Positions 2,808-27,584 are shown, counted from the stretch's first letter. The stretch: DNA of 27,584 nucleotides from a virus (IMGVR_UViG_640753024_000006:1-27584), one strand, 5' to 3'. The notes: generated by a model not told the origin, from the sequence alone. Translations and numbers: made by a program.

Positions 2808-4340
2808 CTACTGGTTCACAGAATCGCGGGTTTCAATCCCCTTCACCCATTTCGGATCATTCGGATCGCTAATCCCTGCAACAAATTCACCACGTGATAC
2901 TGCAAGCAGTTCATCGGCGTCAGGCTGGCTGATATTGGCTGCCTGCATAATGTTGTTTACTTCGTCAGCGGTAACTTTTACCGGCCCTGGTTGTGCGGTC
3001 GTGTCAGATGCACCAGTATTTTGTTGTGAACCTGAGTATGTACCGTTTTTGCGGACGAAATATTCTTCTTTCGTGATTTCAGTAGCCCCGGCAGCCAGTG
3101 CCTTATCCAGACCAGAAAGTTTGTTTGCGCGACCGTATTTTTCGCCATCCTTGTCGGTGAAGAGGAAGTAGAACGGCCCCTCACGCTCTACAGATGGTTC
3201 GACTTCCACTTTGCATTCGGTTTTTTCGTTGTCCGGAATTGCCGTTTCCACTGCATCAGTTTCTGGTACTGGCGACGAGAGAGTATCAGTTGCGATCTGA
3301 TTTGTTCCTTCATCTTCAAACACGCCCTTTGTAGTCAGGTATTCAGTAATGTATTTGTTCAGTGCCACAGGGTCTTTGTGAATGTCGATCGGACGCTCAC
3401 GGACAAGGCCAAAAATAGTCTGGCGGTCGTAGCGAAGGGCATCAGGCTGTTTGCGCATTGATGCCGAGATACGCTTCCAGTCTTCGCGGTCGTTGTTGAT
3501 AACTTCATTTTTTGCCCAGCGATGGATGCTGCCGTCAATGTTTCCGGCATCAATGTCACCAGGCCACAGAGCGTAGGCCAGTTCATCATCCAGTGTTTTC
3601 CATGTCTGCTTGTATTCGCGATGAGTGGCAGCAATGGCCGGGTTGATTTTTCCTGTTGAATTTTCAGTGTTCTGTTGATTGGCTCTGGCGCGGGCGAGAT
3701 CAACAACAGACGTGTATTTTCCGGTTTCCTTGCGTTCACCTTCGCGACGTTTTTTCCAGATGCGCATCTCTGCCTGAATTTCGGGCCATTTGGCACCAGG
3801 CTTACATTTATGCTTAACCCACCCGATGGTATGCAGCTTAAGCTCCGGATACATGGCGTTAACTTCTGGCATTTTCATCAACGCTTCAACGATATGTCCG
3901 TCGAATGTTGCCATGTCTTCCTGCAACAATTCCTGCGCGCTAATCACCATATCAACGGTGATATTTTCACATGTGTCGAACTTAACCATGACAGCGTTCT
4001 GTACTTCAGGGGCCAGCTTGTCAAAAGTGACGTTCATCGGATCTGATTCAGTCTCAACCGGTACAAAGGAAGCAGACTCCTCATCCCAGCGGTTTTCCTG
4101 CATATATTCAGCATCCCAGGAATCGAGGGCAGGGCGGGGTATACCGGGTTTATCCTCGCAAACAAGAAATTTATAAGCGCAGTCCTGAGCAGCCGGATAA
4201 TGTTCCAGGAATTGCCAGTGAAATTTTGCGCGGGCGCGACGTTCATCACCAGCTTCAATGGCAGTGGCTACAGCGACTGCACCTTCTTCCTTTATTGCCT
4301 GTTCGTCCGGAATGGCGGCGCAAATAAAGACTTTACTCAT
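2808..4340 (-). CDS. Hypothetical early protein (510 aa), function unknown
   Basis: Long uninterrupted ORF on the same strand as exo/xis/int; no motif recognised by eye. Confidence 0.6.
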
Positions 4341-13143: not shown

Positions 13144-14199
13144 GTGCGGGTATTACTTCGACCTGTTCCGGTACCGGAACTTGGGCTGGTGGTGCTAAAA
13201 CCGGGCCGTGAATCCATGCAGGTATTTCATAACCCTCGAGTTCTGGTGGAGCCGGAACCGAAAAGCATGCGCGGTCTGCCGTCCGGAGTCGTTCCTGCTG
13301 TTCGCCAGCCGCTGGCGGAGGATAAATCATTACTGCCATTTTTCAGCGATGAGCGGGTGATTCGTGCTGCTGGTGGTGCTGGGGCACTGTCTGACTGGCT
13401 GTTGCGTCATGTCAAATCCTGCCAGTGGCCACACGGCGATTATCATCACAGCGAAACCGTTATTCACCGATATGGTACCGGCGCAATGGTGTTGTGCTGG
13501 CACTGCGACAACCAGCTGCGTGACCAGACCTCCGAATCACTCGGGCAACTTGCTCACCAAAATTTGTCAGCATGGATGATTGACGTCATACGCCATGTAA
13601 TGAATGGCGCGCAGGAGCGTGAATTATCGCTGGCTGAATTATCCTGGTGGGCAACCATAAATAACGTAGCGGACGCACTACCGGAGACGGTGTTACGTCG
13701 TTCGCTGGGATTACGCGCGGAAAAAATTCGCTCAGTATACCGCGAGAGCGACATCGTGCCGGGAGAGCAGACCGCCACCAGCATGCTGAAGCAGCGCACA
13801 AAAAATATTGCGCTACTGCCTCACGCCCACCAGCAAAACCCGCCACAGGAAAAGACGGTGGTAAGCATTGCCGTTGATCCGGAGTCACCGGCTCAGTATC
13901 TCCAGCGCCAGAAACCACGACGGGAAGAGATGCCTGTATACACGCGTTGGGTAAAAACGCAGAAATGCATGACGTGTGGTAATCAGGCAGATGATCCGCA
14001 TCACATCATTGGTCATGGACTGGGAGGGATGGGAACAAAGGCTGATGATTTGTTTGTTATTCCGCTGTGCCGTAAATGCCATAGCGAACTACACGCCGGG
14101 GTAAAAGATTTTGAAGAAAAACACGGCAGCCAGCTGTTGTTGCTGATTCGTTTTTTAATGCACGCGAGAAATTCGGGTGTCCTGAAGTGGAAAGCATGA
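13144..14199 (+). CDS. DUF968-like protein with C-terminal HNH-like Cys/His cluster (YdfU-like)
   Basis: 351 aa; C-terminal CMTCGN...PHHIIGHG...PLCRKCHSELH; GGAGG RBS with GTG start. Confidence 0.6.
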   Translation: MRVLLRPVPVPELGLVVLKPGRESMQVFHNPRVLVEPEPKSMRGLPSGVVPAVRQPLAEDKSLLPFFSDERVIRAAGGAGALSDWLLRHVKSCQWPHGDYHHSETVIHRYGTGAMVLCWHCDNQLRDQTSESLGQLAHQNLSAWMIDVIRHVMNGAQERELSLAELSWWATINNVADALPETVLRRSLGLRAEKIRSVYRESDIVPGEQTATSMLKQRTKNIALLPHAHQQNPPQEKTVVSIAVDPESPAQYLQRQKPRREEMPVYTRWVKTQKCMTCGNQADDPHHIIGHGLGGMGTKADDLFVIPLCRKCHSELHAGVKDFEEKHGSQLLLLIRFLMHARNSGVLKWKA

Positions 14200-15297: not shown

Positions 15298-15322
15298 AAA
15301 CCCGCTTAAATGCGGGTTTTTT
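15298..15322 (+). terminator. tR'-like rho-independent terminator
   Basis: aacccgc-ttaaat-gcgggtt stem-loop followed by TTTTTT. Confidence 0.8.
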
Positions 15323-15395
15323 GCTTAACTCTGTGGACCTTTTTATCTGTAGTTGTAAGATATGGATATTCTTACAATTTAGGTCGGTGAGCTTA

Positions 15396-16160
15396 ATGGA
15401 AGAACAGCACGGTAATTACTTTATAAAACGAATTCAGTTGATTGGAAGGGGTGCATTTGGCTTTGTTGAACACGTTAAGGTTTACAACCTCAACAAGGGT
15501 GAATGTGGGGATTATGCTAGAAAGGTTTTAGCCCCCGAAAAACCAGAGCTTTTGGCGCAAATAGAGCAGTTTAGAAGGCGTTTTAAAAGGGAGGTCGTGT
15601 ATCAATCACATTGCGTACATAGCAATATTGTTCCTATTTATTTGTGCGATTTGTTTGCCGAGAATCCATGGTTCATTATGGATAAAGCAGAATGTGATCT
15701 TGAGCACGAAATAACGAACAACCTTCTTACAACAGATCAAAAAATTTCAATAGTGAAAATGGTATTAGATGGTGTAGCTCACATCCATGCGAAAGGCTAT
15801 TTACACAGAGATATAAAACCATTTAATGTCTTGCGATTTAGCGACGGAACATACAAGGTGTCTGATTTTGGTCTGGTAAAAGATACAAATCCCGAAGGGG
15901 ATACCACTAAATTGACCGAGATCGGTACCCGTATGGGAAGTACAAGATATATGGCTCCCGAGATTTTATATAATGCCGAGTATTCAGTTAAGACTGATGT
16001 TTATGCGGTGGGGCGGTTAATTGAGGACTTAAATTTAGATGATAAAAAAATAAAGCCTATCATAGCGAAGTGTACCAGGATGGATAAAGATGATAGATAT
16101 CAGACAATAGATGATGTGGCGTTTGATTTTGTGCATTCTTTTTTAAGGAGTGAGTCATGA
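15396..16160 (+). CDS. Eukaryotic-like (Hanks-type) Ser/Thr protein kinase, minimal kinase domain (255 aa)
   Basis: Subdomain motifs GRGAFGFV (Gly loop), ARK (Lys), HRDIKPFN (catalytic loop), DFG, MAPE (APE), DVYAVG; AT-rich; ATGA overlap with the downstream gene. Confidence 0.85.
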   Translation: MEEQHGNYFIKRIQLIGRGAFGFVEHVKVYNLNKGECGDYARKVLAPEKPELLAQIEQFRRRFKREVVYQSHCVHSNIVPIYLCDLFAENPWFIMDKAECDLEHEITNNLLTTDQKISIVKMVLDGVAHIHAKGYLHRDIKPFNVLRFSDGTYKVSDFGLVKDTNPEGDTTKLTEIGTRMGSTRYMAPEILYNAEYSVKTDVYAVGRLIEDLNLDDKKIKPIIAKCTRMDKDDRYQTIDDVAFDFVHSFLRSES

Positions 16161-17467: not shown

Positions 17468-18517
17468 ATGACTAATACTGTAAAAATATCCAGTTGTGAG
17501 TTAATCAACGCTGATTGCCTGAAATTTATCCAGACCTTACCGGAAAACTCTGTCGATCTGATAGTCACAGACCCGCCATACTTTAAAGTGAAGCCCGAGG
17601 GCTGGGATAACCAGTGGGAGGGCGACGATGATTACCTGAAATGGCTGGACCAGTGTCTGGCGCAGTTCTGGCGGGTACTGAAGCCTGCCGGAAGTCTTTA
17701 CCTGTTCTGTGGTCATCGCCTGGCATCTGACACCGAAATCATGATGCGTGAGCGCTTTAATGTGCTGAACCACATTATCTGGGCGAAGCCGTCCGGACGC
17801 TGGAACGGGTGCAATAAGGAAAGTCTGCGGGCGTATTTTCCGGCAACAGAGCGCATTCTGTTTGCAGAACATTATCAGGGACCGTATCGCCCGAAAGATG
17901 ATGGCTATGTGGCACAGGGGCGCGAGCTAAAACAGCACGTCATGGCCCCGCTGATTTCTTACTTTCGTGATGCGCGTAAATCACTGGGAATAACGTCAAA
18001 ACAGATAGCGGAAGCCACCGGAAAGAAAAACATGGCTTCGCACTGGTTTGGTACCAGTCAGTGGCAGTTACCGAACGAGGGTGATTACAACAAATTGCAG
18101 GCGTTGTTTGCGCGTGTTGCGGCAGAAAAACATCAGCGCGGGGAACTGGAAAAACCACACCACCAGCTGGTCAGCACATACAGTGAGCTGAACCGGCAGT
18201 ATACGGAATTGCTGAGTGAATATAAAAATTTGCGGCGGTATTTCGGTGTGACGGCGCAGGTTCCGTACACCGATGTCTGGACGCATAAACCGGTGCAGTA
18301 CTATCCAGGGAAACATCCGTGCGAAAAACCGGCAGAAATGCTGCAGCAGATAATCAACGCGAGCAGTCGTCCGGGAGACCTGGTTGCAGATTTTTTTATG
18401 GGTTCAGGTTCAACGGTAAAAGCGGCGATGGCACTGGGGCGTTGTGCGATTGGTGTTGAGCTGGAGACAGGACGTTTTGAACAGACAGTCAGGGAAGTTC
18501 AGGATTTAATCGTTTGA
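17468..18517 (+). CDS. DNA methyltransferase, N6-adenine (or N4-cytosine) beta-class
   Basis: DPPY motif (VTDPPYF) near the N-terminus and FxGxG SAM motif (FFMGSGST) near the C-terminus; 349 aa; same position as the methylase in Stx-type phages. Confidence 0.85.
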   Translation: MTNTVKISSCELINADCLKFIQTLPENSVDLIVTDPPYFKVKPEGWDNQWEGDDDYLKWLDQCLAQFWRVLKPAGSLYLFCGHRLASDTEIMMRERFNVLNHIIWAKPSGRWNGCNKESLRAYFPATERILFAEHYQGPYRPKDDGYVAQGRELKQHVMAPLISYFRDARKSLGITSKQIAEATGKKNMASHWFGTSQWQLPNEGDYNKLQALFARVAAEKHQRGELEKPHHQLVSTYSELNRQYTELLSEYKNLRRYFGVTAQVPYTDVWTHKPVQYYPGKHPCEKPAEMLQQIINASSRPGDLVADFFMGSGSTVKAAMALGRCAIGVELETGRFEQTVREVQDLIV

Positions 18518-21724: not shown

Positions 21725-22279
21725 ATGAAGGTTAATAAAAAGAAACTTGCCGAAATTTTCAACGTGGATCCGCGAACGATTGAACGCTGGCAGTCTCAGG
21801 GACTCCCTTGCGTCTCCGGAGGTGGTAAGGGCGTTGAATCTGTATTTGATACCTCCATGGCAATTCAGTGGTATGCACAGAGGGAGGCTGATATCGAAAA
21901 TGAAAAACTCCGTAAAGAGGTTGAGGATTACAGAGCTGCCAGTGAGGCAGATCTCCAGCCTGGGACTATTGAGTACGAACGCCATCGACTTACGCGTGCG
22001 CAGGCCGACGCACAGGAGCTGAAGAATGCCAGAGACTCCGCAGAAGTGGTGGAAACCGCATTCTGTACTTTCGTGCTGTCACGGATCGCAGGTGAAATTG
22101 CCAGTATTCTTGACGGGATCCCTCTCTCGGTACAGCGGCGTTTTCCGGAACTGGAAAACCGACATGTTGATTTCCTGAAACGGGATATCATCAAAGCCAT
22201 GAACAAAGCAGCCGCGCTGGATGAACTGATATGGCTTACAGCCGTGTTTCGACTTTCTCCGGGGATTATCTCCGCGTAA
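21725..22279 (+). CDS. nu1: Terminase small subunit Nu1 homolog, C-terminus replaced at a deletion junction
   Basis: N-terminal ~170 aa closely resemble lambda Nu1 as I recall it (conserved ...[60 protein letters not shown]...); the last residues run into lom-derived DNA. Confidence 0.85.
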
Positions 22280-22476
22280 CTGACAACAAGGGGAAAACGC
22301 ACGACGTGCTGACCGGAAGTGATGACGGTCGCCACAGCAACACGTCTCTGGCGTGGGGGGCTGGCGTGCAGTTTAACCCGACCGAATCCGTGGCCATTGA
22401 TATTGCTTATGAAGGCTCCGGCAGTGGTGACTGGCGCACTGACGGTTTCATCGTGGGTGTCAGTTATAAATTCTGA
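22240..22476 (+). pseudogene. lom: 3' remnant of lom (Ail/Lom outer-membrane protein family)
   Basis: Translation [25 protein letters not shown]...DGFIVGVSYKF is a Lom/Ail C-terminal beta-barrel end (terminal F); no N-terminal part or signal peptide present. Confidence 0.8.
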
Positions 22477-22502
22477 TTAGCCAGGTAACACAGTGTTATG
22501 AC

Positions 22503-22529
22503 AGCCCGCCGGTTCAGGCGGGCTTTTTT
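22503..22529 (+). terminator. Rho-independent terminator between lom and stf
   Basis: agcccgcc-ggttca-ggcgggct hairpin followed by TTTTTT. Confidence 0.8.
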
Positions 22530-22540
22530 GTGGGGTGAAT

Positions 22541-25500
22541 ATGGCAGTAAAGATTTCAGGTGTACTGAAAGACGGCACAGGAAAACCGGTACAGAACTGC
22601 ACAATCCAGCTGAAAGCAAAACGTAACAGCACCACGGTGGTGGTGAACACACTGGCCTCAGAAAATCCGGATGAAGCCGGGCGTTACAGCATGGACGTTG
22701 AGTACGGTCAGTACAGCGTTATTCTGTTGGTGGAAGGCTTCCCGCCGTCACATGCCGGGACCATCACCGTGTATGAAGATTCCCGACCCGGTACGCTGAA
22801 TGATTTTCTCGGTGCCATGACGGAGGATGATGCCCGTCCTGAGGCACTGCGCCGTTTTGAACTGATGGTGGAAGAGGTGGCGCGTAACGCGTCCGCGGTG
22901 GCACAGAACACGGCAGCCGCGAAGAAGTCAGCCAGCGATGCCGGCACATCAGCCCGTGAGGCGGCAACCCATGCGACTGATGCTGCAGGCTCAGCACGCG
23001 CAGCCAGCACGTCAGCCGGACAGGCCGCGTCGTCGGCTCAGTCAGCGTCTTCCAGCGCAGGAACGGCATCAACAAAGGCTACTGAAGCATCAAAAAGTGC
23101 TGCTGCTGCAGAGTCCTCAAAAAGCGCGGCAGCTACCAGTGCCAGTGCCGCGAAAACGTCAGAAACGAATGCGGCAGCGTCACAAAAATCTGCAGCCACT
23201 TCTGCATCCGCCGCGACCACAAAGGCGTCAGAAGCTGCCACCTCAGCCCGGGATGCGGCGGCCTCAAAAGAGGCAGCGAAATCATCAGAAACGAACGCAT
23301 CATCAAGCGCCAGTAGTGCAGCTTCCTCGGCAACGGCGGCAGGAAATTCCGCGAAGGCGGCAAAGACGTCCGAGACGAACGCCAGGTCTTCTGAAACGGC
23401 AGCGGGACAGAGTGCCTCAGCTGCGGCAGGCTCAAAAACAGCGGCTGCGTCGTCTGCCAGCGCCGCGTCAACAAGTGCCGGGCAGGCCTCAGCCAGTGCC
23501 ACCGCCGCCGGAAAATCGGCAGAAAGCGCCGCATCATCCGCTTCAACAGCCACAACGAAGGCTGGCGAAGCCACTGAGCAGGCCAGCGCAGCAGCGAGGT
23601 CTGCTTCTGCAGCAAAAACCTCTGAAACAAATGCAAAGACTTCAGCAGACAATGCTGCTTCCTCTAAGGCGGCAGCCGCATCGTCCGCTGGTTCAGCGGC
23701 GTCATCGGCATCATCTGCGTCTGCTTCAAAAGATGAGGCGACCAGACAAGCGTCAGCAGCGAAAGGTAGTGCCACGACAGCAACAACGAAAGCATTAGAG
23801 GCGGCAGGCAGTGCGACGGCTGCATCTCAGAGCAAAGTTGCTGCTGAATCCGCGGCAACGCGCGCCGAGACAGCGGCAAAACGGGCAGAGGATATTGCAT
23901 CCGCCGTGGCGCTTGAGGATGCGAGCACGACGAAAAAGGGGATAGTCCAGCTCAGCAGTGCGACCAACAGTACGTCTGAAACGCTGGCGGCAACGCCAAA
24001 GGCAGTAAAATCAGCCTATGACAATGCAGAGAAACGTCTGCAGAAAGACCAGAACGGCGCTGATATACCCGATAAGGGACGCTTCCTGAACAACATTAAC
24101 GCGGTCAGTAAAACAGACTTTGCTGATAAGCGTGGTATGCGTTATGTGCGGGTTAACGCTCCTGCAGGTGCAACATCTGGAAAATATTACCCTGTTGTTG
24201 TTATGCGTTCTGCTGGCTCAGTAAGCGAACTGGCATCAAGGGTCATTATCACCACGGCAACGCGAACCGCAGGCGATCCGATGAATAACTGCGAGTTTAA
24301 CGGATTTGTTATGCCTGGTGGCTGGACTGACAGGGGGCGTTATGCTTATGGAATGTTCTGGCAATATCAAAACAATGAACGAGCCATCCACTCAATAATG
24401 ATGAGTAATAAGGGCGATGATTTGCGCTCTGTGTTCTATGTTGATGGCGCTGCTTTCCCTGTTTTTGCGTTTATCGAAGATGGCCTGTCAATATCCGCAC
24501 CTGGTGCTGATCTCGTTGTTAATGATACGACCTATAAGTTTGGTGCAACAAATCCAGCGACTGAATGTATCGCGGCGGACGTTATCCTTGATTTTAAGAG
24601 TGGGCGTGGTTTTTATGAGTCCCATTCGTTAATCGTTAACGATAACTTGTCGTGCAAAAAACTTTTTGCCACAGACGAAATTGTAGCGCGTGGTGGTAAT
24701 CAGATTCGAATGATAGGTGGGGAGTATGGTGCATTATGGCGTAATGATGGCGCTAAAACTTACCTGCTGCTTACCAATCAAGGTGATGTTTATGGTGGCT
24801 GGAATACATTAAGACCGTTTGCTATTAATAACGCAACCGGCGAACTGGTTATTGGAACCAAACTGTCCGCAAGTCTGAACGGTAATGCATTAACAGCAAC
24901 AAAGCTGCAAACGCCAAGACTGGTTTCTGGTGTTGAGTTTGATGGTTCCAGAGATATTACTTTAACCGCTGCGCATGTGGCTGCTTTTGCCAGAAGGGCA
25001 ACGGATACATATGCCGATGCGGATGGTGGCGTTCCCTGGAATGCCGAATCAGGCGCTTACAATGTCACCCGCTCTGGCGACACCTATATTCTGGTTAACT
25101 TCTATACCGGAGTCGGAAGTTGCCGGACCCTGCAGATGAAGGCGCATTACAGAAATGGTGGTCTGTTCTACCGTTCCTCAAGAGATGGCTATGGTTTTGA
25201 GGAAGACTGGGCAGAAGTTTATACCTCGAAAAATCTTCCACCAGAAAGCTACCCAGTCGGCGCACCAATCCCGTGGCCATCAGATACCGTTCCGTCTGGT
25301 TATGCCCTGATGCAGGGGCAGACTTTTGACAAATCTGCTTACCCGAAACTTGCAGCCGCTTATCCGTCAGGTGTGATCCCTGATATGCGTGGCTGGACGA
25401 TTAAGGGCAAACCTGCCAGTGGTCGGGCCGTATTGTCTCAGGAACAGGACGGCATTAAATCGCACACCCACAGCGCCAGCGCATCCAGTACGGATTTGGG

Positions 25501-25954
25501 GACGAAAACCACATCGTCGTTTGATTACGGCACTAAATCCACGAATAACACCGGGGCGCATACGCACAGTCTGAGTGGCTCTACGGGGTCTGCCGGTGTT
25601 CATACTCATGGTAATGGTATTCGTTGGCCAGGAGGCGGCGGTTCTGCGTTATCATTTTATGATGGCGGTGGGTTCACTTATGTCCAGAATTCACAGTATC
25701 AAGTAAGCCCGGAGACTTCTTCCTATAGATCGTATTATCAACGTATTCAGACACAGTCAGCAGGTGCTCATACCCACTCGCTGTCTGGTACTGCAGCAAG
25801 TTCTGGCGCACATGCACATACTGTAGGTATTGGTGCGCATACGCACTCCGTTGCGATTGGTTCACATGGACACACCATCACCGTTAACGCTGCGGGTAAC
25901 GCGGAAAACACCGTCAAAAACATCGCATTTAACTATATTGTGAGGCTTGCATAA
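22541..25954 (+). CDS. stf: Side tail fibre protein Stf (long Ala/Ser-rich repeat shaft, C-terminal HxH-repeat tip)
   Basis: N-terminus [26 protein letters not shown]... matches lambda Stf as I recall it; ~350-aa Ala/Ser/Thr-rich low-complexity region with KxSETNA repeats; C-terminal GAHTHS/HxH repeats typical of fibre tips. Confidence 0.9.
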
Positions 25955-26538
25955 TGGCATTCAGAATGAGTGAACAAGCACGGACCATAAAAATTTATAA
26001 TCTGCTGGCCGGAACTAATGAATTTATTGGTGAAGGTGACGCATATATTCCGCCTCATACAGGTCTGCCAGCAAACAGTACCGATATTGCACCACCAGAT
26101 ATTCCTGCTGGCTTTGTGGCTGTTTTCAACAGTGATGAGGCATCGTGGCATCTCGTTGAAGACCATCGGGGTAAAACGGTTTATGACGTAGCGTCAGGGG
26201 ACGAGTTATTTATTTCTGAACTCGGTCCGTTACCGGAAAATGTTACCTGGTTATCGCCGGAAGGGGAGTTTCAGAAGTGGAACGGCACAGCCTGGGTGAA
26301 GGATACGGAAGCAGAAAAACTGTTCCGGATCCGGGAGGCGGAAGAAACAAAAAACAACCTGATGCAGGTAGCCAGTGAGCATATTGCGCCGCTTCAGGAT
26401 GCTGCAGATCTGGAAATTGCAACGGAGGAAGAAACCTCATTGCTGGAAGCCTGGAAAAAGTATCGGGTGTTGCTGAACCGTGTTGATACATCAACTGCAC
26501 CTGATATTGAGTGGCCTACGAACCCTGTCAGGGAGTAA
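25954..26538 (+). CDS. tfa: Tail fibre assembly chaperone Tfa
   Basis: 194 aa; start overlaps the stf stop (TAATG); conserved Tfa C-terminal region (...[25 protein letters not shown]...). Confidence 0.85.
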
Positions 26539-26592
26539 TCATTGGGATTATGCCGCAGCACGTCTTAAGCAAGAACGTGCTGCGGTTGGATG

Positions 26593-27249
26593 CTATTTTT
26601 TCCCTGAAGCGGAAAACATTACTACAGTACCTTGAACCTTGGTTTTAACATTCTCGAAATGCTCTGAGAGTATATGTGTTAAGCCTTCTTCGGAATCTTT
26701 TGTGTTTGAAAAGATGCCTTTCTGATTGTAAATGCGCATCAGTTTTTGACCGAAGCTATTGTGCACAACTCCATCGCCAAGAATTGTGGCTCCGTATAGA
26801 GTTCCATCGTCAGTTAAGGCCTGCGCCGCATTGCGTATTACACAGCTTTTTGTAGATATATTTCCAGGCAGGCAGTGAAGAAGGTAAAACATGGAAATGG
26901 AATCAAATTGACCATGTAACGCCGCGGGATAAGGTTCAAAAACATCATGGCTAATTTTATGTTTAATTTTTGATTCCCCAGCCCTTGTCGATGCCGCGTT
27001 CAGGCTAGCTTCGTTCAAATCCATTAAAGATATCAGACTACTCTCAGGTACGTGGGTAAGGTAAAACCCAGTTCCAACACCAATATCCAGATGGTTGTTA
27101 CCTACATGTTCCAGAAAGTGTGGAAGAAGGTGTTCCTTTGTAGGACATCCCCATGCAAGCCGATTTGATACTCCCAAAACCCACCAGTCATAAAGCTTTA
27201 GGGTAAGTGGTGTGTAAATTTTAGCCCCATCATCTGTGTTTTTTTTCAT
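26593..27249 (-). CDS. Class I SAM-dependent methyltransferase (substrate unknown), AT-rich
   Basis: Motif I HLDIGVGTGFY (hh-D-h-G-x-G-x-G); GGTGA RBS before ATG 27249; opposite strand to the fibre genes. Confidence 0.75.
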   Translation of the reverse strand: MKKNTDDGAKIYTPLTLKLYDWWVLGVSNRLAWGCPTKEHLLPHFLEHVGNNHLDIGVGTGFYLTHVPESSLISLMDLNEASLNAASTRAGESKIKHKISHDVFEPYPAALHGQFDSISMFYLLHCLPGNISTKSCVIRNAAQALTDDGTLYGATILGDGVVHNSFGQKLMRIYNQKGIFSNTKDSEEGLTHILSEHFENVKTKVQGTVVMFSASGKK

Positions 27250-27317
27250 TGATTTCACCATGTTATAGTTTTATTTGTGAATTAAATCAATTATGGCGAT
27301 GAATTACAAGGGGTTAA

Positions 27318-27584
27318 ATGCTGCCGCAGCATAGCGATATTGAAATAGCCTGGTATGCTTCGATACAGCAGGAGCCGAATGGCTGGAAGACCGTCACCAC
27401 ACAGTTCTACATCCAGGAATTCAGTGAGTATATTGCGCCACTGCAGGATGCTGTAGATCTGGAAATCGCAACGGAGGAAGAAAGATCGTTGCTGGAGGCA
27501 TGGAATAAATATCGGGTATTGTTGAATCGTGTTGATACATCAACTGCACCTGATATTGAGTGGCCGACTTCACCTGCAGAGTAA
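27318..27584 (+). pseudogene. Truncated second tfa copy (Tfa C-terminal domain only)
   Basis: C-terminal ~50 aa ([46 protein letters not shown]) near-identical to the Tfa C-terminus at 26383-26538; the N-terminal 35 aa are unrelated. Confidence 0.5.

Follow-up and report, generated by a model that had tools for sequence, protein, structure and literature searches.

Tail-fibre genes can lie in invertible segments, such as the G segment of Mu, the C segment of P1 and the P segment of e14, which come with Gin, Cin and Pin. Morons, in the sense of Hendrix and Juhala, are a second point of reference: they are extra, independently transcribed genes of deviant composition that stand between conserved phage genes, with lambda lom and bor as examples. 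A third is a specific locus in E. coli K-12 MG1655, where the cryptic prophage DLP12 carries tfaD(+), ybcY(-, a pseudogene) and tfaX(+) as b0561-b0563. The region described here is this already known tfaD-ybcY-tfaX locus, whose annotation in the K-12 reference genome goes back decades; the original prediction had not identified it as such.

The window, meaning the whole 27,584-nt viral stretch IMGVR_UViG_640753024_000006, ends in an allele of this locus. In a blastn comparison, K-12 matches window positions 26100-27564 (1465 nt) at 96.9% identity, with the same gene order and orientation. The features of the region are the following:

22535-25954, plus strand: stf, side tail fibre gene, 1139 aa (Pfam phage_tail_N, Gp34_trimer, Collar and Phage_fiber)
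25954-26538, plus strand: tfa, full-length tail fibre assembly gene, 194 aa (Caudo_TAP)
26362-26538, plus strand: direct repeat copy 1, the 3' end of tfa (158-nt core 26362-26519, extended to the stop)
26552-26586, no strand assigned: strong hairpin, a shared junction element between the convergent tfa and methyltransferase genes
26587-27404, minus strand: methyltransferase cassette, 818 bp, GC 41.7% (delimited by comparison with Citrobacter L011 and phage Ayreon)
26593-27261, minus strand: class I SAM-dependent methyltransferase, 222 aa, intact ybcY allele, phrog_2132 (Pfam, PHROG)
27262-27317, no strand assigned: putative AT-rich divergent promoter spacer with one sigma-70-like site
27318-27404, plus strand: phrog_3893 piece, the first 29 codons of a small phage gene, forming the 5' part of the tfa' ORF
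27405-27584, plus strand: 3' remnant of a second tfa allele (Caudo_TAP positions 75-131; alignment to lambda Tfa)
27411-27584, plus strand: direct repeat copy 2, the tfa' 3' remnant (158-nt core 27411-27568, extended to the stop)

Comparative analysis with K-12 DLP12 reveals the same hairpin, the same divergent spacer and the same chimeric start of tfa'. The likeness extends upstream to a Nu1-family gene (nohD) joined to a truncated fibre region; the deletion of head and tail genes runs from nu1 to lom in the window prophage, whereas in K-12 DLP12 it goes into tfa. The alleles also differ at the locus itself. In K-12, ybcY is a pseudogene in which a 2-bp deletion in a T-run removes the likely start region, and tfaX is annotated with 61 codons, against 88 in the window, and diverges at its 3' end. 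The window, unlike K-12, has an intact methyltransferase, an intact tfa and a complete stf. Here stf is the start of a fibre module that ends with tfa, and its counterparts in matching E. coli genomes are labelled prophage tail fiber. In the Pfam search, tfa matches Caudo_TAP with E = 1.9e-44 over profile positions 1-130 of 131, and its exact 194-aa protein is found on at least 1000 public contigs.

The locus is common. Of 5426 complete E. coli genomes, 1498 contain 80% or more of the 1685 bp at 25900-27584, and in many of them the identity is 99.7-99.9%. Their annotation names a tail fiber assembly protein, a class I SAM-dependent methyltransferase and an incomplete tail fiber assembly protein. 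The exact 222-aa methyltransferase occurs on about 1000 or more public contigs. A search of other prophages for the order tfa, methyltransferase, tfa', which the original prediction had recommended, finds it both in DLP12 and in viable lambdoid phages such as 2G7b, ev243 and the PhiR series. The cassette as such is carried at 98-99% identity by 2G7b, ev243, PhiR26_1, PhiR29_1, PhiR29_2, PhiR30_1, PhiR49_1, PhiR68_2, Turner and Kati, and 14 phages carry the methyltransferase gene.

The direct repeat of the tfa 3' end, on which the original prediction was built, is real. The repeat search aligns its core, 26362-26519 against 27411-27568, as 158 ungapped nt at 87% identity, and with one 3-nt indel allowed the similarity reaches both stop codons (180 nt at 85%). 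When the downstream copy of the window is compared by blastn with the upstream copy of locus L001, whose block is 99.9% identical to the window, the match has E = 1e-51. The coordinates first proposed, 26383-26538 and 27432-27584, are right except that they begin about 21 nt too late. Both copies keep the tfa reading frame. They differ at 20 of the 158 nt, mostly at synonymous sites: among the 52 codons of the core, 11 differ synonymously and 7 non-synonymously. This synonymous-rich pattern suggests two tfa alleles that diverged while both were functional, rather than a recent local duplication, and the copies look like alleles from different phages.

Two tfa-related segments near stf recall the invertible regions of e14, Mu and P1, where more than one such segment also lies downstream of a fibre gene, and the layout might be taken for a decayed Pin/Gin-type invertible fibre segment. 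The direct orientation of the copies effectively refutes this. No significant inverted repeats flank them, there is no second stf C-terminal segment, and, set against the Mu G, P1 C and e14 P systems, the region lacks an invertase, inverted crossover sites and an alternative fibre C-terminus. The original prediction had likewise argued against an inversion system, and the sequences beyond tfa' agree: about 230 bp and then potB, the prophage end, in strain 203740; appY and ompT in K-12; a hydrolase, ompT and an integrase gene (int) in phage 2G7b. No complete context examined has a pin/gin invertase downstream.

The borders of the cassette can be read from relatives that share it or lack it. Citrobacter freundii L011 is 92% identical in nucleotide sequence over window positions 26581-27404 only and unrelated outside them, and its methyltransferase protein is 90% identical to that of the window. 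Base-level alignment with L011 places the left edge at 26587, six nt beyond the methyltransferase stop, 48 nt past the tfa stop and beyond the hairpin, and the right edge at 27404. Phage Ayreon lacks 26629-27287, almost exactly the methyltransferase gene, while keeping both edges (26393-26628 and 27288-27404); beyond 27404 it continues like Citrobacter, unlike the window. Other contexts have unrelated fibre genes upstream of the shared homology. This homology begins inside the tfa 3' end in Ayreon (26393), 2G7b (26418) and L019 (26458), and at the hairpin (26553) in phages Kati, Turner and PhiR68_2 and at loci L018, L020 and L021. A 10-nt direct repeat, TGCCGCAGCA, noticed by eye at both cassette ends (26552-26561 and 27321-27330), was considered as a target-site duplication and rejected: neither Ayreon nor Citrobacter conserves the second copy, and the repeat is too short to tell from chance.

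The hairpin at the left edge lies in a 71-nt stretch with a folding energy of -28.5 kcal/mol (z = -4.05); inspection of the sequence itself places a T-run about 9 nt beyond the stem. The terminator scan did not call it, and it is not a canonical intrinsic terminator in either direction. PhiR49_2, SPF_0923 and Chlobot have the hairpin but lack the methyltransferase, and in PhiR49_2 it is followed by dinI.

The right edge falls inside an ORF. This ORF, tfa', occupies 27318-27584 on the plus strand (88 aa) and matches only positions 75-131 of the 131-position Caudo_TAP profile; as the original prediction had said, it is a truncated Tfa and not a full-length one. Full-length Tfa proteins, that of lambda included, can be aligned only with residues 27-86, the tail-fibre PHROGs cover residues 29-87, and the Tfa part (the C-terminal ~59 residues) is 78% identical to lambda Tfa. 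Residues 3-37 match phrog_3893, whose profile is 79 aa long. An intact 80-aa homologue lies to the right of the methyltransferase in L011 (5699-5941; E = 7.6e-38), and full-length copies are found in HK225, HK140, mEp390, phiES15 and Klebsiella and Erwinia phages. Copies of phrog_3893 often adjoin dinI or umuD-like genes. Judged from these alignments, tfa' is a chimera, with codons 1-29 from phrog_3893 and codons 30-88 from the tail of another tfa allele. The junction lies within 27405-27420 and contains an 8-nt identity between the phrog_3893 lineage and tfa', TCCAGGAA at 27412-27419, compatible with microhomology-assisted joining. The 7 nt between 27404 and TCCAGGAA match neither comparison sequence, so that the point of crossover cannot be fixed exactly.

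The original prediction had the cargo gene inserted by recombination between tfa copies. In that account the cassette entered or separated duplicated tfa genes, and the repeat is the footprint of the insertion. Direct repeats of the same gene end do flank the cargo, and in E. albertii L017 the tfa' stump retains its own spacer and hairpin copy, giving a 227-nt repeat that resembles a duplicated target. The junctions, however, disagree with such an event: the right one joins phrog_3893 to tfa rather than tfa to tfa, and the left edge of the cassette stands clear of tfa. The copies, moreover, are no more than 87% identical and differ mainly at synonymous sites, and the same cassette occurs elsewhere with a single tfa piece only, or with no tfa called upstream of it. 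We therefore consider insertion by tfa-tfa recombination unlikely.

The tfa' ORF could also be a gene in its own right, serving as a mini-chaperone or as an alternative Tfa C-terminal domain that alters fibre assembly or host range. It is intact in the window, its exact 88-aa protein is on at least 1000 contigs, the fusion has its own PHROG, phrog_2341, and the retained C-terminal part is the conserved one with the close match to lambda Tfa. We nevertheless hold such a function to be very unlikely. The ORF fuses two unrelated genes, and a full tfa lies just upstream. It is shorter or in two pieces in K-12, 2G7b and PhiR49_1, the last two matching it in two pieces, and the members of its cluster span 44 to 88 aa. 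PGAP labels the equivalent incomplete, missing the N-terminus, and calls it a pseudogene. Direct reading of the sequence further shows that the -10 hexamer proposed for the K-12 tfaX promoter (PMC3946193) overlaps the ATG of tfa'. Across these contexts, tfa' alleles evidently vary and decay.

The region is most probably the right end of a lambdoid late operon that carries a methyltransferase moron, with tfa' as a recombination scar; we hold this reading with good confidence. The moron would be an AT-rich unit of about 0.8 kb, a self-contained gene outside the phage's own programme, and the upstream tfa would be the functional chaperone gene that serves the present stf-tfa module. Illegitimate or microhomology-assisted recombination would have fused the downstream tfa stump to the opening 29 codons of the phrog_3893 gene, which would normally diverge from the methyltransferase. 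We infer the order of recombination events at the tfa/tfa' junction.

Comparison with morons supports the moron reading in several respects. The methyltransferase is a single extra gene, present in some related phages and absent from others (Ayreon, PhiR49_2). Its GC content, 41.4%, lies below that of tfa (48%) and stf (52.9%), and it has a putative promoter region of its own. Its place at the late-operon end is shared by other cargo, dinI and ompT included, and relatives carry dinI or nothing there. One difference is that the adjoining hairpin is not a canonical terminator. That a single AT-rich class I SAM methyltransferase would lie between the copies on the opposite strand, as cargo at a recombination-shaped site past the fibre genes, was foreseen correctly.

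In the moron reading, the last ~180 nt of tfa, together with the hairpin, acts as a joint for homologous recombination among lambdoid phages, because this tfa end is conserved among them. Exchange at the joint would swap fibre modules on one side, the left, and right-arm cargo or prophage ends on the other, and would leave the same cassette with several fibre modules, several tfa' alleles and several integration sites or prophage ends. The direct repeat should also let the cassette be lost now and then. When E. coli genomes were queried with an artificial tfa/tfa' deletion product extended by the flank on the potB side, no deletion allele appeared: the 40 best of 362 high-coverage records all keep the cassette and match in two pieces. 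Repeat-mediated deletion is thus a prediction of the moron reading.

The 56-nt stretch between the methyltransferase and tfa' may drive expression of the moron. Its sigma-70-like site, on the minus strand (TTAACC-16-CATAAT), is no more than shuffled sequence gives. Genomic SELEX with the RpoD holoenzyme, which reports in vitro binding to the K-12 allele, placed the K-12 ybcY/tfaX spacer among the divergent spacers with constitutive promoters and gave it an HNS flag (PMC3946193). We infer that the methyltransferase is transcribed in the lysogen from its own promoter region, against the late operon.

Structurally, the protein is a class I SAM methyltransferase. The ORF matches Pfam Methyltransf_12, Methyltransf_23 and Methyltransf_25, all above their cut-offs. 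Its true start is probably the ATG at 27249, giving 218 aa, since positions 1-218 of the phrog_2132 profile align to residues 5-222 and the homologues begin at M5. The AlphaFold model (mean pLDDT 90) and the homologue alignment agree with the class I plan: a Rossmann-like seven-strand fold, a glycine-rich SAM-binding motif I and, beyond strand 2, an acidic residue. In 25 homologues, G61, G63 and G65 of the motif LDIGVGTG are invariant, as is D81.

Foldseek returns more than 1300 methyltransferase structures for the model, with bacterial phosphatidylethanolamine N-methyltransferase, JHAMT, phosphoethanolamine methyltransferases and NodS in the top ranks, although these matches are generic, at 12-21% identity. 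The fold resembles PmtA (8ys9), JHAMT (7ec0), UbiG (4kdr), phosphoethanolamine methyltransferase and NodS, and the family profile matches JHAMT (3.6e-6) and UbiG. The likeness to bacterial PmtA (8ys9) is structural only (TM 0.61-0.66, 15-17% identity): the protein failed the PmtA family test, scoring 15.7 bits with NF045882 against a cut-off of 390, and its scores with the NCBIfam PmtA, RquA and CpaM models are all far under the cut-offs.

The original prediction also noted that the enzyme lacks a DPPY/NPPY motif, and a direct reading of the translation agrees, with no PP dipeptide anywhere in the protein. The Pfam search of the methyltransferase gave no N6_N4_Mtase, MethyltransfD12 or DNA_methylase match, and none of its top structural matches is a DNA methyltransferase. 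Motifs, profiles and model together place it as a small-molecule or lipid methyltransferase, not a DNA methyltransferase. An anti-phage defence role was considered and rejected, PADLOC giving only a match to mad2 (E = 0.0091, 12.9 bits) with no stretch passing.

Outside phages, the family is large. It counts 2296 homologues. A species-level scan turned up 527 loci at 50-68% identity in Enterobacterales, Pasteurellaceae, Pseudomonas, Xanthomonadales and Oxalobacteraceae, and none of the loci in this identity range has tfa nearby. A neighbouring tfa is confined to the Escherichia/Shigella copies and to two 99%-identical contigs from MAGs labelled Bacillus and Planococcaceae. In Salmonella and Enterobacter, the homologues are stand-alone chromosomal genes between housekeeping genes. 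Flanking-ORF clustering of 72 loci from other species found no universal partner, only lineage-specific neighbours, and a function drawn from gene neighbourhood was given up, these loci and the Salmonella and Enterobacter contexts showing nothing beyond such neighbours. The distribution indicates that the moron gene descends from a stand-alone chromosomal gammaproteobacterial family.

These comparisons bear on whether the enzyme acts on the phage itself, by mom-like or anti-restriction DNA modification or by methylating the fibre or virion. The gene does adjoin the fibre genes, and phages do carry modification enzymes near late genes; the original prediction drew the analogy to mom from this position. 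The analogy fails on the family, whose stand-alone chromosomal members occur in non-phage contexts, and on the fold, which is that of small-molecule and lipid methyltransferases. Further points against it are the missing DNA methyltransferase motif and Pfam matches, the lack of a meaningful PADLOC match, transcription opposite to the late operon, and a bona fide N6_N4 DNA methyltransferase already encoded by the same prophage at 17468-18517. A phage-directed role is accordingly hard to credit. For the moron enzyme, the likeliest role is methylation of a small molecule or lipid, with a benefit to the lysogen rather than to the virion.

To our knowledge, the widespread YbcY family has been characterised by no one. 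Literature on ybcY, on tfaX/tfaD and on morons with tail fiber assembly offers incidental mentions only, including use as a neighbour of ompT. A K-12 ybcY mutant showed no difference in a Hha toxicity assay, where the allele is a pseudogene (PMC2408971). One speculative proposal, to which we give only a small chance, is that the intact phage-borne YbcY enzyme serves in lysogenic conversion, methylating a membrane lipid in a PmtA-like manner (phosphatidylethanolamine, for example) or a toxic small molecule. If true, this would mean altered envelope properties or chemical resistance in the E. coli strains that have it, about 28% of the total, a function overlooked because the K-12 allele is a pseudogene.

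For phage biology, the importance of the locus is low: it is an ordinary mosaic junction with a moron beside a gene stump. For annotation, the thousands of records named "tail fiber assembly protein, partial" (TfaX, phrog_2341) should not be treated as fibre chaperones. For the enzyme family, about a quarter of E. coli genomes, as well as viable phages, carry YbcY (phrog_2132) in intact form, and functional work on it needs a non-K-12 allele.

The prophage is defective. At 21725-22476 of the window, the whole Nu1 terminase small-subunit ORF is fused straight onto the last 80 codons of lom, and all of the head and tail genes that normally lie between nu1 and lom are absent from the window. The Nu1 ORF is complete, matching positions 1-164 of the 164-position Phage_Nu1 profile, while the lom remnant matches positions 120-199 of Ail_Lom. 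The cryptic K-12 prophage DLP12 shows the same style of defect, with nohD there joined to aaaD/tfaD. This exact nu1-lom junction was found in no complete E. coli genome of the collection, and the genomes that match 540-22030, the left part of the window, form a different set from those that match its right part, from about 22231 to 27584.

Several other genes of the prophage are listed below.

Further genes of the prophage in the window
2808-4340, minus strand: 510-aa ORF adjoining the integrase
13144-14199: DUF968/HNH protein
15321-16160: eukaryotic-type Ser/Thr protein kinase (Pkinase, E = 2.8e-33)
17468-18517: bona fide DNA methyltransferase (N6_N4_Mtase, E = 2.1e-44)

Because of the N6_N4_Mtase gene, DNA modification is already covered by a prophage gene other than the class I SAM methyltransferase of the cassette. 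A Pfam search with the 510-aa ORF gave no match at E <= 0.001.

A 45-aa ORF (26511-26648), which corresponds to the PGAP hypothetical protein WP_001309429.1 in matching genomes, covers the hairpin together with the stop of tfa on one side and the 3' end of the methyltransferase gene on the other; overlapping two real genes as well as the hairpin, it looks spurious. In the side tail fibre gene stf, the N-terminal third (22900-23800) codes for an extended low-complexity stretch rich in Ala, Ser and Thr, and this gives rise to long, spurious ORFs in several of the other reading frames.

The closest methyltransferase copy outside Escherichia, with 90% protein identity, lies in Citrobacter freundii (L011, 5300-7000), where dinI follows the gene and an intact phrog_3893 gene and a UmuD-like fragment precede it. 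This region is near purB, hflD and mnmA, and the carrier prophage of E. coli strain 203740 likewise lies a few genes away from them. A scan of genome contigs also revealed two contigs (L019 and L027) that share 99% identity with the E. coli cassette, tfa pieces included. The MAGs into which they were sorted bear the names Bacillus sp. and Planococcaceae; mis-binning of E. coli phage DNA, or contamination with it, probably explains the presence of these contigs there.

Within Escherichia, the arrangement itself varies. The chromosome of E. coli ECMA0423 (CP178302.1) carries two methyltransferase-tfa' units about 178 kb apart (L018 and L021), both beginning at the hairpin without tfa upstream. 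In Escherichia albertii (L017, 3625-3851), the tfa' stump has a spacer and hairpin of its own behind it, copies of those that come after tfa, and the direct repeat therefore reaches 227 nt, at 88.5% identity. This variant may be nearer to the original resident tfa end.
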